Source of the DNA: Caedimonas varicaedens
GTDB taxonomy: Bacteria > Pseudomonadota > Alphaproteobacteria > Caedimonadales > Caedimonadaceae
Assembly (NCBI GenBank): GCA_001192655.1
Contig: BBVC01000077.1
Location: 1 to 6,164 of the forward strand
Direction of reading: 5' to 3'
Length of the DNA stretch: 6,164 bases
Numbering within the stretch: position 1 is the stretch's first letter; every line of letters starts with the position of its first letter. Positions 1-6,164 of this stretch are shown here, one piece after another. The notes beneath the pieces are model-generated. The model saw only the letters and a program-made list of their open reading frames with translations, had not been told where the DNA came from and searched no databases. The position numbers were made by a program, and so were the translations under genes.

Positions 1-477
1 AACTTAAATGATGTTACTTATCATATTACAGGTCATAGTCGAGGAACAGGATTTGTACCACAAACAGTCGAATCTCTCTTAAATCTCGATATTCCTCCTC
101 AAAACATTCGAGCTGTTTGTTTTAGTCCGCTTAAAGTCTACAGTTTACAAAAAGCGCAAGAATATAATCAAAAGTTTGGAGATCGCTTTCATCTCAATTT
201 TAAGGCAGAAGAAGATACCGTGGAGGAGATGGCGATGGCGGGCGTTAATTTCTTAAAGCAAACACCTAATAATACAATATACTCTACTGTAGGTCGAACG
301 TTTACTTATAAAGCAACAGATTATCAAGAATTCAATCAATGGGTATATAAGAATCCTTATATACACTTGGATCCTAGTGCGCGATATCTCAAGCTGTTTC
401 TCTCACCGCTCAATTGGGGAGCACATATGCCAGAGGCTTATCTGCTAACAGCTCCCAACGCATGGAAATCGCAATAG
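1..477 (+). CDS. Class-3-lipase-like alpha/beta hydrolase, 3' portion (5' end lies outside the window)
   Basis: Frame 1 has no stop from nt 1 to the TAG at 475-477, so the 220..477 track ORF (GTG start) is only the tail of a longer ORF. Translation starts NLNDVTYHITGHSRGTGF..., with a G-x-S-x-G nucleophile elbow (GHSRG, Ser codon 37-39). It continues IRAVCFSPLKVYSLQKAQEYNQKFGDRFHLNFKAEEDTV (candidate Asp codon 214-216) and later WGAHMPEAY (candidate His codon 424-426). The Ser-to-Asp spacing of 59 residues equals that of Rhizomucor miehei lipase (S144/D203, as I recall it). Confidence 0.6.
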   Translation, partial: NLNDVTYHITGHSRGTGFVPQTVESLLNLDIPPQNIRAVCFSPLKVYSLQKAQEYNQKFGDRFHLNFKAEEDTVEEMAMAGVNFLKQTPNNTIYSTVGRTFTYKATDYQEFNQWVYKNPYIHLDPSARYLKLFLSPLNWGAHMPEAYLLTAPNAWKSQ

Positions 478-505
478 CGGCCTCGAAGGGGTCGCATGCG
501 CTTCG
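477..505. other. GC-rich structured segment just after the lipase-like stop codon. Possible weak terminator or IS200-type subterminal hairpin remnant.
   Basis: gcggcc (477-482) pairs with ggtcgc (490-495), including one G-T pair, around a 7-nt loop. Alternatively cgaag (484-488) pairs with cttcg (501-505), enclosing the 8-bp palindrome cgcatgcg (493-500). There is no following T-tract. The segment lies between the lipase-like stop and the 3' end of the IS200-like relic. Confidence 0.3.
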
Positions 506-507
506 GT

Positions 508-841
508 TTAGAACATTTGTAGTTGACCATTGTTCTGGTTTTTATCTTGGTTCTTGACGTATCTTTCTGCAACTATCCAATTGCCGCTCTCTCCTACTGT
601 GACGGCATAGTACTCATCTGTCCAAAATTCTCCGCCCAAGAAATCTTTTGAAAAGCTCCCATGCTATCAGACTTTTGAACTTTCTGACTACTTCATCAAT
701 GCTATACCTCATGCAAAACCAAAGGGAATATCCAGGTTCAAATGGGTTTGGGTTATCTCTTTTTAAAAAAACTTGACAGATTTTGGCAAATAATGCCAAT
801 GTGATGAATATTGCATTTTTACTATGATATAAAGGAATTGA
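508..841 (-). pseudogene. tnpA: IS200/IS605-family (Y1/HUH) transposase tnpA relic, frameshifted and degenerate
   Basis: The - strand translation of 511-636 reads GGEFWTDEYYAVTVGESGNWIVAERYVKNQDKNQNNGQLQMF, with the stop at 508-510. This matches the conserved IS200 TnpA C-terminus (LWGGxFWSxGYFxxTVGxxGNxxxIxxYVxNQ), including the catalytic-Tyr helix. The upstream part is in another frame (track ORF 614..799, TTG start): ...YSIDEVVRKFKSLIAWELFKRFLG, resembling PxYSxSxxVxxxKSxxAREIFKxF. A 1-nt frame break lies at about 634-640. The His-hydrophobic-His motif position reads YSLWF, so it is lost. The total length is shorter than an intact tnpA. Confidence 0.55.
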
Positions 842-863
842 TCATGTATAAGGTTTAGAAGGG

Positions 864-1140
864 ATGAAAAAAGGTTATTTGATGTTCCAGATTTCCTCTT
901 CCTTGCAGCGTCATTTTAAAGGATGTTGTTCCCCCCTTTCAGGGATTATGTTGTTTGTTTACATGAAATGTCGATTTTCCCTCAGTTACCATGAACTGGA
1001 AGAAATAATACTCATGCGAGGAACATTTGTAGATCACTCAACGCTTCAATGATGGGTGATAGGCTTCCTTCCGTTGATTGATCAGCGTGCACCGTTGCAA
1101 GAAGCCTGTGAATGGCAGCTAGCGGATGGATGAAACAAAG
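864..1140 (+). pseudogene. IS6-family (IS26-like) DDE transposase, N-terminal relic with a nonsense codon and a frameshift, truncated just after the first catalytic Asp
   Basis: The translation is ...QRHFKGCCSPLSGIMLFVYMKCRFSLSYHELEEIILMRGTFVDHSTLQ*WVIGFLPLIDQRAPLQEACEWQLA, then a +1 shift, then MDETKMKK. This aligns with the IS26 Tnp N-terminus as I recall it (NPFKGRHFQRDIILWAVRWYCKYGISYRELQEMLAERGVNVDHSTIYRWVQRYAPEMEKRL...PWHMDETYVKVNG). The TGA at 1050-1052 sits where the conserved Arg is (CGA->TGA). A frame change occurs between W (1113-1115) and ATG 1126. Similarity may persist to about 1165 (KMKKQY.NL against KIKGQW.YL). No DDE core follows. Confidence 0.6.
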
Positions 1141-2175
1141 ATGAAAAAACAATATGATAATTTGGGGATAATAAAAAAATTATCTCTGGCTGCTGTGTTA
1201 ATAATGACTTTGCCCGTTGCTTTTTGCAGTGATCCTACTGAGTGGGATGCTAACAAGGGATCCATAATCCTCCCTAAAGAGATAGTCACACATGCTTTCT
1301 CATATCTTCCTGTTGAAGATCTGGGTAATATGGCTTTGGTTTCCAAAGGCTTTAAAGAAATTTCAGAGCAAGATATCCTTTGGAAAAATTGGATTTCTGG
1401 CGTTAATACAAAGAGAGAATTTGTCGAATATGTCACCCCTGGTGTGATTATGTACAACCTTGGCAATTTCAACGAGATATTTATTTCCCCATATGATTTA
1501 TTTACTATATTAAATGCGGGTAGAATATCTGTGAATGAGTCTTTATATCAGTTCAAAAACTCTCGTATTACAACTCCGAAAGGGGAGCTTCTGAGTATTA
1601 TTCAGGTGATGGAGCACTGTGGTAGCCCCCATATAATGTTAAATAACGATCAATCTGTCTCTCTGATTTATGAAGAATGCGAGCGATATTATTTTAGAGT
1701 TCAGTTCGAAGCAGTAGAAGAAAACCTCAACAAATTCATTAATTTAGTTGCACCAACCCCACGTACTGATATTCATTGGAATGGACCTGAAGTCGGTGAA
1801 CTTTATATAAAGCGTCTCAATTGTTTAAGCGATCATTATAAGCCCCATTATAACTACTGGGGACGTAATCGTGCTTTTGACGAGTTAGAGGAGCTATTGT
1901 ATGGCTTTGGTAATGTGATAAACGCATCCAATGACATAAAAGATGCAGCGGTGCTTTTCTTTGTTCAAAAATATGTGGATTTTAGAGCAAAGAATTCTAG
2001 CCCGTGGGGTGATGGCTCTTATGCTGAAGATTACCTTCACCAGGTTTTAGCCCAGATCAGACAGGCTCTTCAAACAGACTTTGTGTCAACGGATTATATT
2101 CCTCCTCTGGAATATGTTGTGGCAAATGAAGCTCTTCCTGAAAAGATAAGAGAGTATTATTCGAGGCCCTTCTAA
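1126..2175 (+). CDS. F-box domain protein (eukaryotic-like, putative host-ubiquitination effector) with an unassigned C-terminal region
   Basis: This is the longest ORF in the accessory part (349 aa). Residues 47-89 match the F-box consensus. An N-terminal hydrophobic stretch KKLSLAAVLIMTLPVAFC precedes it. The start is uncertain among ATG 1126, ATG 1141 (MKKQYDNL..., with ggatgga upstream) and ATG 1204 (MTLPVAFC...), because the first codons look derived from the IS6 relic. Stop TAA at 2173-2175. Confidence 0.7.
   Translation: MDETKMKKQYDNLGIIKKLSLAAVLIMTLPVAFCSDPTEWDANKGSIILPKEIVTHAFSYLPVEDLGNMALVSKGFKEISEQDILWKNWISGVNTKREFVEYVTPGVIMYNLGNFNEIFISPYDLFTILNAGRISVNESLYQFKNSRITTPKGELLSIIQVMEHCGSPHIMLNNDQSVSLIYEECERYYFRVQFEAVEENLNKFINLVAPTPRTDIHWNGPEVGELYIKRLNCLSDHYKPHYNYWGRNRAFDELEELLYGFGNVINASNDIKDAAVLFFVQKYVDFRAKNSSPWGDGSYAEDYLHQVLAQIRQALQTDFVSTDYIPPLEYVVANEALPEKIREYYSRPF
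1264..1392 (+). other. F-box motif within the 1126..2175 CDS
   Basis: IILPKEIVTHAFSYLPVEDLGNMALVSKGFKEISEQDILWKNW compared with the F-box consensus LPxEIxxxIFxxLxxxDLxxxxxVSKxWxxLxxDxxLW. The LP, EI, F.YL, DL, LVSK and D..LWK positions are all present. Confidence 0.7.
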
Positions 2176-2222
2176 GCTCTTAGGTTGTATTCTCTAGGAA
2201 GAAATTAAGACAACCCCTAATC

Positions 2223-2258
2223 TTATCGAGAGCTTCCTTATCAAGAAGCTCTCGATAA
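2223..2258. terminator. Perfect 14-bp inverted repeat (hairpin) 47 nt downstream of the F-box gene. Possible terminator, but it lacks a U-tract.
   Basis: ttatcgagagcttc (2223-2236) and gaagctctcgataa (2245-2258) are exact reverse complements around the 8-nt loop cttatcaa. The flanks are aggtttaaac on the + strand and a non-T-rich sequence on the - strand. Confidence 0.35.
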
Positions 2259-2469
2259 AGGTTTAAACTCTCTCTGAGTATCATTGATAATCAGGAAAAA
2301 CAGGATGTTTGATCAGCGTAACTTCAATTCAACGATTGATTCGATAACAAGAGCTTTCACTCAACCCGTAATTTCTAAGTAGGTGCGATTCTCGCAAATA
2401 CTCCAATGTCATCAAGAGACGATCGTGCATACTTAACTTCTGTTAGACGACGAGAAAAATCCCATCCTA

Positions 2470-2511
2470 AATCTTTAATCTTTAATCTTTAATCTTTAAT
2501 CTTTAATCTTT
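2470..2511. repeat. Heptanucleotide tandem repeat (AATCTTT)x6
   Basis: Six exact, contiguous copies of aatcttt counted base by base from 2470 to 2511. The array is intergenic, between the convergent F-box gene and the 2697..3218 (-) gene. Confidence 0.95.
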
Positions 2512-2696
2512 TCATATTTTATGACTATAAAACCTCTCTCTCATAGCCAGAAATATCTATTAAACAAGATTATGCAAGAACTCTAATCAATGTATAGCAA
2601 AATAATGAATCGGTATTTGAAGAGTGAGAATATTAAAAAAAGCCTTGAAAAGCCTGTCCTGAAAAATACAGTTTTTCTCGAAAGCCACCACACAAC

Positions 2697-3218
2697 TCAC
2701 GATTCTTTAACAGTTTTCCAATAATCTGCCATTTCCTGGTAAAAGTCAGCTTTTTGAAAAAAAAGCTGTGCGTTAAAATCACTGGGAATATAGGTTTTTT
2801 TATAATAATGTGCTGAAGAGGCGCGCGCCTTGCTGAAAGGATCAACTTTCAGGGAATGAGAAGATTTTGAAGATCTTATTCTGTCAACAAAAAGTTGATC
2901 CTGTTGCCCCTGAAGTCTGACCGTATAAGACTTTACGATATTCTTTTGCTCTTCTGCCTGACGGCGATAGGCTGTGGTCACGGCTTCATAATATTTTTCC
3001 AACGCCTGGGGATCCTCTTCATCCTCGGCAATGGGAGATGGAAAATCCTTTATATTTTTTTCCTCTGGGATCATGGGAAATTCCGTTTGATCAATCGTGT
3101 ATGTTGTTAAATACCAGGCATTAGACTCAGGCATTTCACCCTGCTTGAAACTGTACCCTGTGGATGATATCATTATCATCCATAAAGTTACATAGAGGGA
3201 AGATTTTGAAATTCTCAT
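2697..3218 (-). CDS. Hypothetical protein, probably exported (173 aa), no recognisable family
   Basis: ATG at 3216-3218 (-) is preceded by GAGGAGAAAAAA, a good Shine-Dalgarno sequence at proper spacing. The N-terminus MRISKSSLYVTLWMIMISSTGYSF looks like a signal peptide or membrane anchor. There is an acidic central stretch, PSPIAEDEEDPQALEKYYE. Stop TGA at 2697-2699 (-). It is longer and better supported than the overlapping ORFs 2895..3110 (+) and 2633..2845 (-). Confidence 0.6.
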   Translation of the reverse strand: MRISKSSLYVTLWMIMISSTGYSFKQGEMPESNAWYLTTYTIDQTEFPMIPEEKNIKDFPSPIAEDEEDPQALEKYYEAVTTAYRRQAEEQKNIVKSYTVRLQGQQDQLFVDRIRSSKSSHSLKVDPFSKARASSAHYYKKTYIPSDFNAQLFFQKADFYQEMADYWKTVKES

Positions 3219-3248
3219 TTTTTTCTCCTCATATTTATTCTATCGATT

Positions 3249-3297
3249 GTTAATCAGAGAGATTAATAATCATTTAATAACAAATGAGCTGATTAAC
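3249..3297. promoter_or_regulatory. Nested inverted repeats in the divergent promoter region between the hypothetical gene and lepB (candidate operator)
   Basis: gttaatcag (3249-3257) and ctgattaac (3289-3297) are exact reverse complements. Inside them, ttaatc (3250-3255), agaga and gattaa (3261-3266) form a second palindrome. TTAATC/GATTAA therefore occurs three times in about 50 bp. The AT-rich context lowers its significance. Confidence 0.3.
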
Positions 3298-3367
3298 TTT
3301 TCTTCCCATTTGCAATAAATTCCGTTATTGTCAGCATAACTTTTAAATAAAATGAGTTAATTAAAAG

Positions 3368-4168
3368 ATGTTTGGAAAAGAAAAAGCACAAAAACAGCCT
3401 GAAACCCTAGGCGAATTCATACGCTCAATTCTTATAGCAATCCTGTTTGCAATGGGGATTCAGACTGTCGCCTATCAGACTTTTAATATTCCCTCAGGAT
3501 CGATGAAACCCAATCTTCTGATCGGAGATTTTATTTTTGTCAGTAAGTTTGCCTATGGTTATACCCATTATTCAATCCCTTTTAGTCCACCCCTTTTTGA
3601 AGGACGACTTTTTGGCTCTGAACCAAAACGGGGTGAGGTTGTCGTCTTTCGCGCTCCTCATAAAACGAATAGCGAGGATTGGATTAAGCGTTGTATTGGT
3701 CTTCCTGGAGACAAGATTCAAATGCGCGGGGGTGTTCTTTTTATCAATGATCAAGAATGCCCATTAGAGAAACTGGACGGAGATTTTCTGGATACTCTAT
3801 ACATAAAATACAATGGCGATGGAACAGAAGAGCGTATACTTGATAAAAATGGACCCTCTATTGAACGCTATATGCAAACGCTTCCCAATGGCGTCAAGCA
3901 TATCATTATTAAGGAAAAGCCCTTTGGCTTGGCTCGCCTTGATAATACGCCTGAGCTCGTGGTTCCTGCCGGACATTATTTCATGATGGGTGATAATCGA
4001 GACGGATCGGATGATAGTCGAAATCAACAGGCGTTGGGGTTTGTCCCCTATGAGAACTTGATCGGTCGTGCTGAACTTATTTTTTTCTCGACAGAAGCGC
4101 GATGGTGGGAGTTTTGGAATTGGCTAACCGGTATTCGCTTTAATCGACTCTTGAATGTTATTCGTTAA
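3368..4168 (+). CDS. lepB: Signal peptidase I (leader peptidase)
   Basis: The 266-aa product has an N-terminal TM segment (FIRSILIAILFAMGI), the catalytic Ser box IPSGSMKPNL (Ser codon 3500-3502), the Lys box KRCIGLPGD and box E GDNRDGSDDSR. It sits at the head of the conserved lepB-rnc-era arrangement. Confidence 0.95.
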   Translation: MFGKEKAQKQPETLGEFIRSILIAILFAMGIQTVAYQTFNIPSGSMKPNLLIGDFIFVSKFAYGYTHYSIPFSPPLFEGRLFGSEPKRGEVVVFRAPHKTNSEDWIKRCIGLPGDKIQMRGGVLFINDQECPLEKLDGDFLDTLYIKYNGDGTEERILDKNGPSIERYMQTLPNGVKHIIIKEKPFGLARLDNTPELVVPAGHYFMMGDNRDGSDDSRNQQALGFVPYENLIGRAELIFFSTEARWWEFWNWLTGIRFNRLLNVIR

Positions 4169-4191
4169 AGGCAAATGTTGAAAAAAAAGCA

Positions 4192-4863
4192 GTGAAAAAA
4201 TCTTTAGAGGAAATTTTAAACTATCAATTCCATCAACCTTCTCTGCTGATTGAAGCGTTAACGCATGCCAGCGCAAAGGGAAAAAAATGCGATAATGAAC
4301 GCCTTGAATTCCTGGGCGACCGCGTTCTAGGGCTTGTGATAGCTAAAACTCTTTATCACCGTTTTCCTGAAGAAAGGGAAGGTGAGCTTGCGGCAAAACA
4401 AGCACACCTTGTCAGTCGCGAAGTGTTAGGACAAGTTGCTGAAAAACTGAAACTTGATGAGATGCTGAAAGTCGCGTACAGAGATCGTGCAGCAGGGTTT
4501 TTCAAGAATAAGGCGCTGATCGCCAATGCATGTGAAGCACTTATAGCGGCACTCTTTCTGGATGGTGGGTTGGAAGTGGCCGAGCGATTTATTCTTCACT
4601 ATTGGGCTGAAGCGTTGAATGCTTCAGAAACTCTTGAGAGAGACGCAAAATCATTGTTGCAAGAATGGGCGCAAGGTCTGAAAAAACCTGCTCCTACTTA
4701 TATTCTTATTCGTCAAACAGGCCCCGATCACGACCCTCTTTTTGAAATCGGCGTACAGGTAAAGGGATTAGAGATGGTGACAGGCAAGGGTTACTCTAAA
4801 CGAGAAGCAGAGCAAAATGCTGCAAAAGTTCTCTTCAATCAAATTCGAGGTCATAATGCCTAA
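4192..4863 (+). CDS. rnc: Ribonuclease III
   Basis: The 223-aa product carries the RNase III signature NERLEFLGDRVLG (4294-4332) and a C-terminal dsRBD (KSLLQEWAQ...PTYILIRQTGPDHDPLFEIGVQV...GKGYSKREAEQNAAKVLF). The GTG start at 4192 is the only in-frame start that keeps the conserved N-terminus LEEILNYQFHQPSLLIEALTHAS. No clear SD. It lies 23 nt after the lepB stop, across an A8 run. Confidence 0.93.
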   Translation: MKKSLEEILNYQFHQPSLLIEALTHASAKGKKCDNERLEFLGDRVLGLVIAKTLYHRFPEEREGELAAKQAHLVSREVLGQVAEKLKLDEMLKVAYRDRAAGFFKNKALIANACEALIAALFLDGGLEVAERFILHYWAEALNASETLERDAKSLLQEWAQGLKKPAPTYILIRQTGPDHDPLFEIGVQVKGLEMVTGKGYSKREAEQNAAKVLFNQIRGHNA

Positions 4864-5752
4864 ATGCTGCGGATTTGTAACGGTTTTAGGAGTTCCCAAT
4901 GTGGGAAAATCCACTTTAACTAATCAGTTAGTAGGCTCCAAGGTTTCTATTGTCTCACCCAAAGTTCAAACGACACGGCGACGCGTTCTGGGAATTACAA
5001 TAAAAGACGAAAGTCAGGTTATTCTTATCGATACTCCCGGTATTTTCGAGCCTAAAAAGCGCTTGGATCGAGCAATGGTTTCGGCCGCATGGGGCGCTAC
5101 GTCAGAAACTGATCTTATCCTCGTTATGGCAGATGCCAGTTATCACCGTCAGGAAAAAACCATTGATATTCTTGAGAAGTCCCTTAAAAAACCAGAAATT
5201 CCCTTATTTTTGATCATTAATAAAATTGATCTGGTTCCTCGTGACCAATTGCTTGCGCTGATTGCCCGTCTAACAGAAAAGAGGAAGATTGATCGTGTTT
5301 TTCTTGTTTCCGCTCACCGAGGAGATGGCATTCAAGATCTTTTACAAGCACTAGCGAATCAGATGCCAGAAGGCCCCTGGTTATTTCCGGAAGATCAACT
5401 AACAGATATGCCGCTGCGTTTGTTGGCTGCCGAAATCACGCGCGAGAAAATTTTTTGTTCTCTTCATCAGGAAGTCCCCTATGGCATTAATGTTGAAACA
5501 GAAGCATGGGAAGAGTTTAAAAATGGCTCGGTTAAAATTTCCCAGGTGATTCATGTACAAAAGCCAGGACAAAAAGCTATTCTTTTGGGAAAAGGGGGCC
5601 ATACCATCAAGTATATTCGCGAAACAGCAGCCCTGGATTTGGGAAAGATGCTGGAACGCCCTGTTCACCTTTTCCTTCATGTAAAAATTTCTGAAAACTG
5701 GGCTGAGCAGCGTGATCACTACACTGACCTTGGACTCGACTATAATGCCTGA
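4856..5752 (+). CDS. era: GTPase Era
   Basis: G1 GVPNVGKST, G3 DTPG, G4 NKID and a C-terminal KH domain (ILLGKGGHTIKYIRE). I prefer ATG 4856 (MPKCCGFVTVLG...), which has GAGG 5 nt upstream, over the track start at 4817. That earlier start would add 13 non-conserved residues and a 47-nt overlap with rnc. With ATG 4856 the overlap with the rnc stop is 8 nt (ATGCCTAA). Confidence 0.92.
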   Translation: MPKCCGFVTVLGVPNVGKSTLTNQLVGSKVSIVSPKVQTTRRRVLGITIKDESQVILIDTPGIFEPKKRLDRAMVSAAWGATSETDLILVMADASYHRQEKTIDILEKSLKKPEIPLFLIINKIDLVPRDQLLALIARLTEKRKIDRVFLVSAHRGDGIQDLLQALANQMPEGPWLFPEDQLTDMPLRLLAAEITREKIFCSLHQEVPYGINVETEAWEEFKNGSVKISQVIHVQKPGQKAILLGKGGHTIKYIRETAALDLGKMLERPVHLFLHVKISENWAEQRDHYTDLGLDYNA

Positions 5753-6158
5753 TTGTTTCTCTGTTGAAGCAGCTGCAAAGGATCTTATTGCAAGGCTTGT
5801 CTCAAATCTCACACCGTTTGATGATCTTGAACGTCAGCACATTCAGGAAACTCTAACGTGGATTCATCAGGGTAAGATGCCCCTTTTTCGTCTTCAAAAG
5901 CCTGATATTCCACCGAAACACCTGGTAGTATATTTTGTGGTATGGGATGAAGACGCAAAAAAAATTCTTCTTGTAGATCATAAAAAAGCCCAACTTTGGT
6001 TGCCCGCAGGGGGACATGTTGAACTTAACGAGCATCCCCGTCTGACAGTTTTACGAGAATGTCGGGAAGAGCTGGGCATTGAGGCAGATTTTTGGCACGA
6101 TGATCCGCTATTTCTGACCTCTACTCTTACAGGTGGCCTGACGCCGGGTCACATATAG
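5745..6158 (+). CDS. Nudix-family hydrolase (possibly truncated at its 3' end)
   Basis: A perfect Nudix box, GGHVELNEHPRLTVLRECREELGI, fits Gx5Ex7REUxEExGU. ATG 5745 overlaps the era stop by 8 nt (ATGCCTGA). The track start GTG 5712 is less likely. The ORF stops at TAG 6156-6158, only about 25 aa after the Nudix box and 6 nt from the window edge. Confidence 0.8.
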   Translation: MPDCFSVEAAAKDLIARLVSNLTPFDDLERQHIQETLTWIHQGKMPLFRLQKPDIPPKHLVVYFVVWDEDAKKILLVDHKKAQLWLPAGGHVELNEHPRLTVLRECREELGIEADFWHDDPLFLTSTLTGGLTPGHI

Positions 6159-6164
6159 CTAAAA

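Follow-up and report, generated by a model that had tools for sequence, protein, structure and literature searches.

What might a protein with a eukaryotic F-box be doing in a bacterium that lives inside a ciliate? The question is raised by a stretch of 6,164 nucleotides from Caedimonas varicaedens (contig BBVC01000077.1 of assembly GCA_001192655.1, positions 1 to 6,164), which was analysed as a whole and is called the window below; it contains an open reading frame (ORF) of 349 aa at positions 1126–2175 of the forward strand. C. varicaedens is an obligate intracellular symbiont of Paramecium (PMC4645214; PMC11909080), an alphaproteobacterial ‘kappa’ killer symbiont of Paramecium biaurelia (PMC4645214). 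Its draft genome is 454-sequenced and transposase-rich, and the genome announcement makes no mention of F-box proteins (PMC4645214). The answer favoured here, with a probability of about 0.55, is that this endosymbiont makes a secreted mimic of a eukaryotic F-box protein of the kind that acts as an adaptor in SCF (Skp1–cullin–F-box) ubiquitin ligases.

The protein is an exact match to GAO98669.1 (UniRef A0A0K8MFK7, Caedimonas varicaedens). The F-box had already been flagged by automatic annotation, since the GenBank name of this entry is ‘F-box-like protein’. An earlier reading of the same DNA, made from the letters and their translations (the sequence-only reading), had placed an F-box at residues 47–89 of the ORF (nt 1264–1392), preceded by a hydrophobic segment and followed by a C-terminal tail with spaced Glu residues; the ORF agrees with its quotation, the residue and nucleotide positions correspond, and all three elements are in the sequence. 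The start of the ORF needs revision. All homologues begin at an MKKQ methionine equivalent to Met6, and the first five codons (MDETK, nt 1126–1140) lie inside the remnant of an IS6-family insertion sequence (IS) transposase. With the WMDETK codons included, the stitched remnant matches positions 1–77 of the transposase model (41.3 bits); without them, the match covers positions 1–59, which marks the MDETK extension as transposase debris. Because the homologues all begin with MKKQ and MDETK belongs to the remnant, the true start is most likely the ATG at nt 1141, giving a protein of 344 aa. The numbering of the 349-aa ORF is kept for residues below, except where model residues are named.

766..1140, forward strand: remnant of an IS6-family transposase, a pseudogene with a stop (1050–1052) and a frameshift; source of the MDETK start.
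1141..2175, forward strand: the coding sequence that, from the starts of homologues, is most likely the true one for the F-box protein (344 aa and a stop codon); exact match to GAO98669.1.

Both Pfam F-box models named for checking by the sequence-only reading score above their cut-offs: PF12937 (F-box-like) reaches 39.4 bits against 24.3 (E 5e-10, residues 49–88) and PF00646 (F-box) reaches 31.1 bits against 20.5 (residues 49–87).

1270..1389, forward strand: F-box domain, residues 49–88 of the 349-aa ORF, identified by Pfam scores above the gathering threshold, a profile search of Protein Data Bank (PDB) sequences and three helices in the structural model.

When a profile of the family F-box (12 members) was run against 177,635 PDB sequences, it matched 18 at E ≤ 0.01, eukaryotic F-box proteins exclusively; the best was FBXO3 (3.6e-8), followed by FBXW8, FBXW7, FBXL5, beta-TrCP and others. 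F-box models are matched by 13 of the 15 family sequences (E ≤ 1), the remaining two being C-terminal fragments, and some distant members lie near or below the two Pfam cut-offs (P0007, 22.2/21.5 bits; P0014, 22.8/20.1 bits). Of 12 family F-box segments, 11 have the proline of the L-P motif; L21, L26, V32, S33, D43 and W46 are invariant, and little or no variation is seen at the hydrophobic core positions, the V-S pair and the terminal L-W. The block is among the best-conserved parts of the family alignment and aligns well, residue by residue, with FBXW8 and FBXO3, whose structures were solved in complex with Skp1. An AlphaFold model built from 15 sequences (mean predicted local distance difference test score, pLDDT, 80.8; predicted template modelling score, pTM, 0.75) contains the three expected F-box helices at model residues 16–23, 28–35 and 39–45, with a pLDDT of 67–80 over the block. 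A first run with eight close homologues (mean pLDDT 50.8) was discarded, and only the 15-sequence model was used; the F-box block had a pLDDT of about 30 in that first run, hence confidence in the three-helix fold is moderate. The F-box is genuine and of eukaryotic type as judged from these comparisons, and binding to Skp1 is predicted from family membership.

The hydrophobic segment ahead of the F-box, regarded by the sequence-only reading as an oddity in a protein that has to reach the host cytosol, turns out to have the anatomy of a Sec-type signal peptide.

1141..1227, forward strand: predicted Sec signal peptide, MKKQYDNLGIIKK / LSLAAVLIMTLPVAF / C, with predicted cleavage after AFC.

The call is rule-based, made from sequence anatomy across the 13 N-terminally complete members of the family, with the cleavage site deduced in the same way. 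All 13 have an n-region with a charge of +2 to +6, an uncharged core of 15–20 aa, a small-x-small motif (AFC/S, ASA/W, GIA/M or THA/S, the slash marking the predicted cut) followed by an acidic stretch, with a helix-breaking residue, Pro or Ser, towards the end of the core. A positive n-region, an h-region of about 10–20 residues and small residues at −3 and −1, as expected of substrates of the Sec pathway and signal peptidase I (SPase I), are thus found in every complete member. The sequences of these segments are unrelated between subfamilies (MKKQYDNLGIIKKLSLAAVLI..., MKTNVFLKQVAFASLVIA..., MSFIKKRNFLNFLISSS...); the conserved feature is the anatomy of an export signal. A lipoprotein reading of the AFC motif, with an SPase II lipobox of the form [LVI][ASTVI][GAS]-C, was considered and rejected: the Cys is not conserved, being absent in P0006, P0007, P0012, P0014, P0017 and P0018, and the window sequence V-A-F-C has Phe at −1.

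Beyond the F-box, about 260 aa match nothing known. For residues 90–349, no match was found in Pfam, NCBIfam, PHROGs or PADLOC, and no family member has a Pfam or NCBIfam match outside the F-box; ANK, LRR, WD40 and Kelch interaction modules are therefore missing, as the sequence-only reading had noticed, and no tandem repeats are evident in the family alignment or the AlphaFold model. A known bacterial enzyme family in this region, the finding that would have made the F-box motif fortuitous, was looked for in the same collections and not found. A PDB-sequence search with a profile of the C-terminal region gave nothing credible (best E 0.04). Relatives are very few: an exhaustive HMMER search with this profile recovered only seven proteins among 1.84 billion representative proteins, word-indexed searches of 5.8 billion proteins also gave seven, and a wider profile raised the latter number to 12. 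For P0012, the most divergent member, no close relatives were found in these searches. The AlphaFold model consists of the F-box helices, an alpha/beta module (model residues 61–163) and a helical bundle (model residues 186–311). Foldseek returned no match for it in the PDB (best E 0.31; template modelling score, TM, ≤ 0.2), and in BFVD only giant-virus F-box proteins, weakly and through the F-box (E ≥ 0.0078, TM ≤ 0.22).

1936..2172, forward strand: conserved helical C-terminal part, with the FFVQKYVDF signature (nt 1957–1983), S-x-x-G-D-G-x-Y-A and the NEALPEKIREYYSRPF tail; helices in the model.

This part holds the invariant and nearly invariant columns of the alignment. The conserved C-terminal residues (W-G, F-D, FFVQKYVDF and S-x-x-G-D-G-x-Y-A) are mostly aromatic or hydrophobic, which suggests that they do not form a catalytic site. 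The tail is near-invariant in window-type members (N334, E335, L337, P338, R342, Y344 and Y345), has a pLDDT of 59–68 in the model and is absent from the branch comprising P0014, P0017 and P0018; its conservation suggests a structural or motif element, not a compositional secretion signal. With neither a known family nor a solved fold to match, these roughly 260 aa may reasonably be read as a new target-recognition domain.

A further property, which the sequence-only reading did not contain, is the divergence of the gene between strains. In a comparison of the window with the related locus L002, protein identity is 99.6% for LepB, 99.6% for Rnc, 99.0% for Era and 97.1% for a 173-aa ORF, and only 70.5% for the F-box protein. 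In 60-nt bins, the flanks are mostly 97–100% identical and the F-box segment 93–95%, while nt ~1377–1920 fall mostly to 58–82%.

1377..1920, forward strand: hypervariable region, comprising the alpha/beta module (nt ~1411–1719) plus the first two helices of the bundle.

Pairwise Nei–Gojobori estimates of the ratio of nonsynonymous to synonymous substitution rates (dN/dS) in this region are 0.95–1.00 against L002 and 0.52–1.21 over 15 allele pairs; the gene-wide values are 0.55–0.86, and those of the neighbours 0.03–0.17. Synonymous divergence is four to seven times that of the neighbours (0.22–0.29 versus 0.03–0.07), so the alleles must be older than the genomic background. Individual comparisons have a patchwork appearance. 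The window and the P0001 allele are 97–100% identical over most of the gene and 81% near the 3′ end, with 18 substitutions in 136 nt versus 20 in 896 nt (p = 1.65e-7 before correction, with about 300 breakpoints scanned); the window and P0005 are 98% identical over the first 90 nt and 66–79% over most of the remainder. Indel lengths between alleles are without exception divisible by three, and none of 5000 replicates of a neutral simulation, run at the observed divergence (p = 0.17), retained the open frame. Neutral decay of the family is rejected by these two results. Positive selection proper is not claimed, the pairwise dN/dS reaching about 1 and not clearly exceeding it. Sequence comparison points to a pattern in which old alleles or paralogues have recombined, while one region is under weak or diversifying selection in a protein otherwise kept intact by selection. 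Such hypervariability is what would be expected of a host-contact surface, and the region at 1377..1920, mapped onto the model, is a candidate for the target-binding part.

The mobile character of the gene was likewise absent from the sequence-only reading. The family has at least two branches, and the three-part layout of signal, F-box and C-terminal region is common to every N-terminally complete member. Members of the window-type branch lie between IS debris and the lepB–rnc–era cluster in the window, L001, L002 and L007, and the nuo operon is found further upstream both in L002 and on the 100-kb contig of P0005; close window-type relatives are found elsewhere, adjoining a DDE transposase (L006) or upstream of sugar-modification genes (L008). 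The second branch (P0014, P0017, P0018), about 26% identical, forms a tandem pair downstream of mnmA. The two branches probably occur together in one genome, since P0005 and P0017 come from one metagenome sample (3300059473). A DNA comparison of the loci reveals a common unit of about 165 bp of upstream sequence, the gene and about 125 bp of downstream sequence, ending near window position 2299.

2219..2263, forward strand: hairpin about 45 nt after the stop codon, with a perfect stem of about 15 bp; 3′ part of the cassette.

The 125-nt region with the hairpin has a folding energy of −36.1 kcal/mol (z = −4.19), and none of 200 shuffled sequences was as stable. The self-complementary element at 2223–2258 is kept in L001, L006 and L008, copies in unrelated genomic contexts. 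No clear T-run follows the hairpin, which may be a terminator, an mRNA-stabilising or mRNA-end structure, or a recombination boundary of the cassette. As one unit, including the hairpin, recurs in loci with different neighbours, the F-box gene behaves like an autonomous cassette of about 1.3 kb that carries a promoter region and a hairpin of its own.

A side observation concerns the tandem pairs. At L003 (5533–7831, forward strand), the downstream copy of such a pair is split into an F-box ORF (6871–7257) and a C-terminal ORF (7370–7831), and on a contig of sample 3300059473 the equivalent downstream copy is called as 244 + 91 aa; these split copies point to ongoing duplication and decay within the family.

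The distribution of the family is narrow. A scan of 185,579 species genomes found no members, and those known come only from the Caedimonas contig and from metagenome contigs of bacterial appearance. The AtpD encoded next to P0012 places its contig among the alphaproteobacteria, unclassified; none of the 80 loci fetched via this AtpD carried a family member. As far as these searches go, the family has been met only in Caedimonas and on a few related alphaproteobacterial contigs from metagenomes. Since PHROGs, PADLOC and plasmid and phage collections gave no meaningful matches, the idea that the family came from a phage, a defence system or a plasmid was rejected. Composition likewise gave no ground for recent horizontal transfer, which was rejected: the GC content at third codon positions is 34.5% in the gene and 35.7–37.9% in its neighbours.

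These results can be assembled into the following mechanism. The precursor would be exported across the inner membrane by Sec, losing a signal peptide of about 29 residues, as the anatomy of its N-terminus suggests. The mature protein of about 315 residues would then be released into the host compartment, for which outer-membrane vesicles, a type II-like step and bacterial lysis are candidate routes. There, the N-terminal F-box would dock on host Skp1, and the orphan domain, in which a variable alpha/beta module packs against the conserved helical bundle, would recruit host proteins for ubiquitination; alternatively, the protein might titrate Skp1. The variable module would change between strains through exchange among old alleles or paralogues, together with weak or diversifying selection. 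A more ambitious proposal, that the family represents a new class of symbiont effector (a Sec-exported SCF-adaptor mimic with a previously unseen recognition fold, shuffled as a mobile cassette between strains and paralogues), is put forward tentatively, as possible but distinctly less probable than the secreted mimic itself.

Several points weigh against a secreted mimic. In the window, 181 bp that are present in L002 (9816–9996) and contain a promoter-like site and a GGAGA ribosome-binding site have been deleted. The bacterial F-box effectors characterised so far are injected through type III or type IV systems, and a Sec signal is, to our knowledge, unusual among them. Type VI systems, the conserved kind in this bacterial group according to a review, normally have no Sec substrates. 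The review in question, from 2025, describes the conserved secretion system of the group as a non-standard type VI (PMC11909080).

The first of these points leads to the strongest of the competing explanations, namely that the window copy is silenced or decaying and that its intact frame merely reflects how recent the IS6-associated deletion is. The transposase is recognisable by NCBIfam NF033587 (IS6 transposase; 24.8 bits on the ORF at 864–1052), and window positions 766–1136 are 97.6% identical to L002 9446–9815, the remnant ending 4 nt before the ATG at 1141. In L001, L002, L006 and L007, about 180 bp of conserved sequence precede the start ATG and contain the GGAGA ribosome-binding site; in L002, there is also a promoter-like TTGTTA-16-TATATT. 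The window copy is therefore without its native promoter and ribosome-binding site, since this segment is missing and the IS6 remnant is joined directly to the gene, a loss that the sequence-only reading did not include. The adjacent 87-aa ORF is broken as well, and window positions 1–765 are rearranged relative to L002. However, the F-box ORF is undisrupted and shares 94% identity with the allele of P0001, in which the upstream region is retained. A GGA is retained at −13 to −11 of the ATG at 1141, the position of the native GGAGAG Shine–Dalgarno sequence, and read-through is possible from a promoter-like site at 783–812, upstream of the IS6 remnant, as the small hairpin that follows the remnant in L002 was lost with the 181 bp. 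Expression of the window copy is uncertain after this deletion, and silencing is a minority possibility; it would in any case concern this copy alone and not the function of the family.

Two side observations belong to this part of the locus. The counterpart of the 87-aa ORF (window 2305–2583, forward strand), which is identical in L002 and L007, is broken by stops, a frameshift and an indel of about 28 nt; either it is not a real gene or its state is a sign of locus erosion, and 454 errors could contribute. At the left end, a partial ORF (1–477, forward strand) runs off the window and carries a GHSRG motif resembling the nucleophile elbow of lipases and esterases, with no Pfam match. Together with positions 480–765, it forms a segment (1–765) that is not collinear with L002, where the upstream gene is nuoA; a rearrangement at the IS remnant follows from this.

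A membrane anchor is the next alternative to a secreted mimic. The hydrophobic segment could be an uncleaved signal anchor, tethering the protein to the bacterial inner membrane or, after delivery, to a host membrane. Its core scores 1.6–2.7 on a 12-residue Kyte–Doolittle window, the uncharged stretch reaches 17–23 residues in some members, the signal call is rule-based, and the first AlphaFold run placed a short helix at residues 22–28 with very low confidence. Against these stand the small-x-small site, the Pro/Ser helix breaker and the acidic stretch of every member, a classic cleavable layout, and a periplasm-held F-box would have no known partner. An anchor is accordingly regarded as unlikely.

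More improbable still is a resemblance to the F-box unlinked to SCF, in which a lineage-specific periplasmic or envelope protein would use the three-helix motif for an interaction within the bacterium. A Sec signal peptide does normally mark envelope proteins, P0007 and P0014 score at or below the Pfam cut-offs, and the C-terminal domain matches no domain of known function. But the window protein lies 15 bits above the Pfam cut-off, eukaryotic F-box proteins are the sole PDB matches of the family profile, with FBXO3 giving the best E value, few parts of this otherwise fast-evolving protein are as well conserved as the F-box block, and the family is seen only on the Caedimonas contig and bacterial-looking metagenome contigs. 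The weakest explanation is that of the sequence-only reading, a type IV-secreted effector with the NEALPEKIREYYSRPF tail as its translocation signal: the tail does have spaced Glu residues and lower model confidence, and type IV delivery is the rule for Legionella F-box effectors (PMC2790608), but the tail is near-invariant in window-type members, unlike compositional type IV signals, and missing from the second branch, a cleavable Sec signal misfits one-step type IV translocation from the cytoplasm, and the review highlights type VI and not type IV in this group (PMC11909080), so that this reading is very improbable.

How does a secreted mimic compare with systems already described? Legionella pneumophila AnkB (also LegU1 and LicA) is similar in several respects: the bacterium lives inside protists, the F-box is near the N-terminus, and it is combined with a target-binding module. 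AnkB differs in having ankyrin repeats and a CaaX motif and in being injected by the Dot/Icm type IV system, whereas the Caedimonas protein has a Sec signal, no known repeats and an orphan alpha/beta-plus-helical domain; no sequence similarity between the two is detectable outside the F-box. With the class of AnkB, LegU1, VirF and GALA, the window protein shares its origin in a host-associated bacterium, but its F-box is not joined to an ANK, LRR, WD40 or Kelch module. That bacteria hijack host ubiquitination with F-box mimics is well established; the examples characterised so far reach the host by type III or type IV injection and carry familiar repeat modules. The AnkB F-box is stated to bind host Skp1 and redirect ubiquitination (PMC2790608), and bacterial F-box effectors are described as working by molecular mimicry of the SCF adaptor (PMC2790608; PMC11338181), as the Caedimonas protein would.

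Eukaryotic FBXO-type proteins (FBXO3, FBXW8; PDB 9kbd, 7z8b) give the best F-box sequence matches and also have an F-box followed by a non-repeat or unique domain. They differ in being cytosolic or nuclear, without a secretion signal, and in having unrelated C-terminal domains, with no match beyond residue ~90. The F-box proteins of giant viruses (Pithovirus, Pandoravirus, Orpheovirus), the top structural matches in BFVD, resemble the Caedimonas family in belonging to protist parasites and in forming expanded, fast-evolving families; unlike it, they have different C-terminal domains and, being made inside the host, need no export signal. A precedent for a periplasm-first route to the host comes from Holospora obtusa, a related Paramecium symbiont, whose periplasmic proteins of 63 and 89 kDa pass into the host in the course of infection, according to titles in the reference list of a review (PMC11909080). 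These proteins have no reported F-box, no sequence relationship is expected, and their release is tied to a specialised infectious form.

The remaining neighbours of the gene are bacterial housekeeping genes, assigned by a Pfam scan.

3368–4168, downstream of the F-box gene: lepB.
4192–4863, downstream of the F-box gene: rnc.
Downstream of rnc: era, then a NUDIX gene.

Since LepB is signal peptidase I, a functional link between this gene and the adjacent exported protein was considered; it was set aside, other family copies being in unrelated contexts. The longest era ORF (ATG 4817, 311 aa) overlaps the end of rnc by 47 nt (window 4817–4863) and is probably over-extended; a start at nt ~4856 would agree with the 298 aa called for homologues. 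The conserved 173-aa ORF at 2697–3218 on the reverse strand has a hydrophobic N-terminus (MRISKSSLYVTLWMIMISSTGYSF...) and a counterpart of equal length at the same position in L002 and in the 100-kb contig of P0005. It is 97% identical to the L002 copy (dN/dS 0.17), has no match in Pfam, NCBIfam, PHROGs or PADLOC and may be another exported lineage-specific protein.

What would a secreted mimic mean for the biology of Caedimonas? The F-box annotation and the concept of bacterial F-box mimicry are already known; the novelty lies in the export signal, in the orphan fold, in the behaviour as a cassette and in the hypervariability between strains. The family is set apart by the combination of an F-box with a classical export signal, by a second domain without detectable relatives among billions of sequences or solved structures and by being by far the most variable gene in a near-identical stretch of genome. 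We know of no Holosporales effector that has been characterised, and a full-text literature search found no paper mentioning both F-box proteins and Caedimonas or Holosporales. Work on the Caedimonas–Paramecium system goes back to the 1930s, and according to the 2025 review neither its toxin nor its antidote has so far been identified (PMC11909080). If the more ambitious proposal of a new class of symbiont effector is correct, different Caedimonas strains would redirect the ubiquitin system of the ciliate to different host targets, which would make the protein a candidate determinant of effects on the host that differ between strains, such as host range, resistance or killing symptoms. It is a first concrete effector candidate and a testable entry point into the manipulation of Paramecium by Caedimonas.

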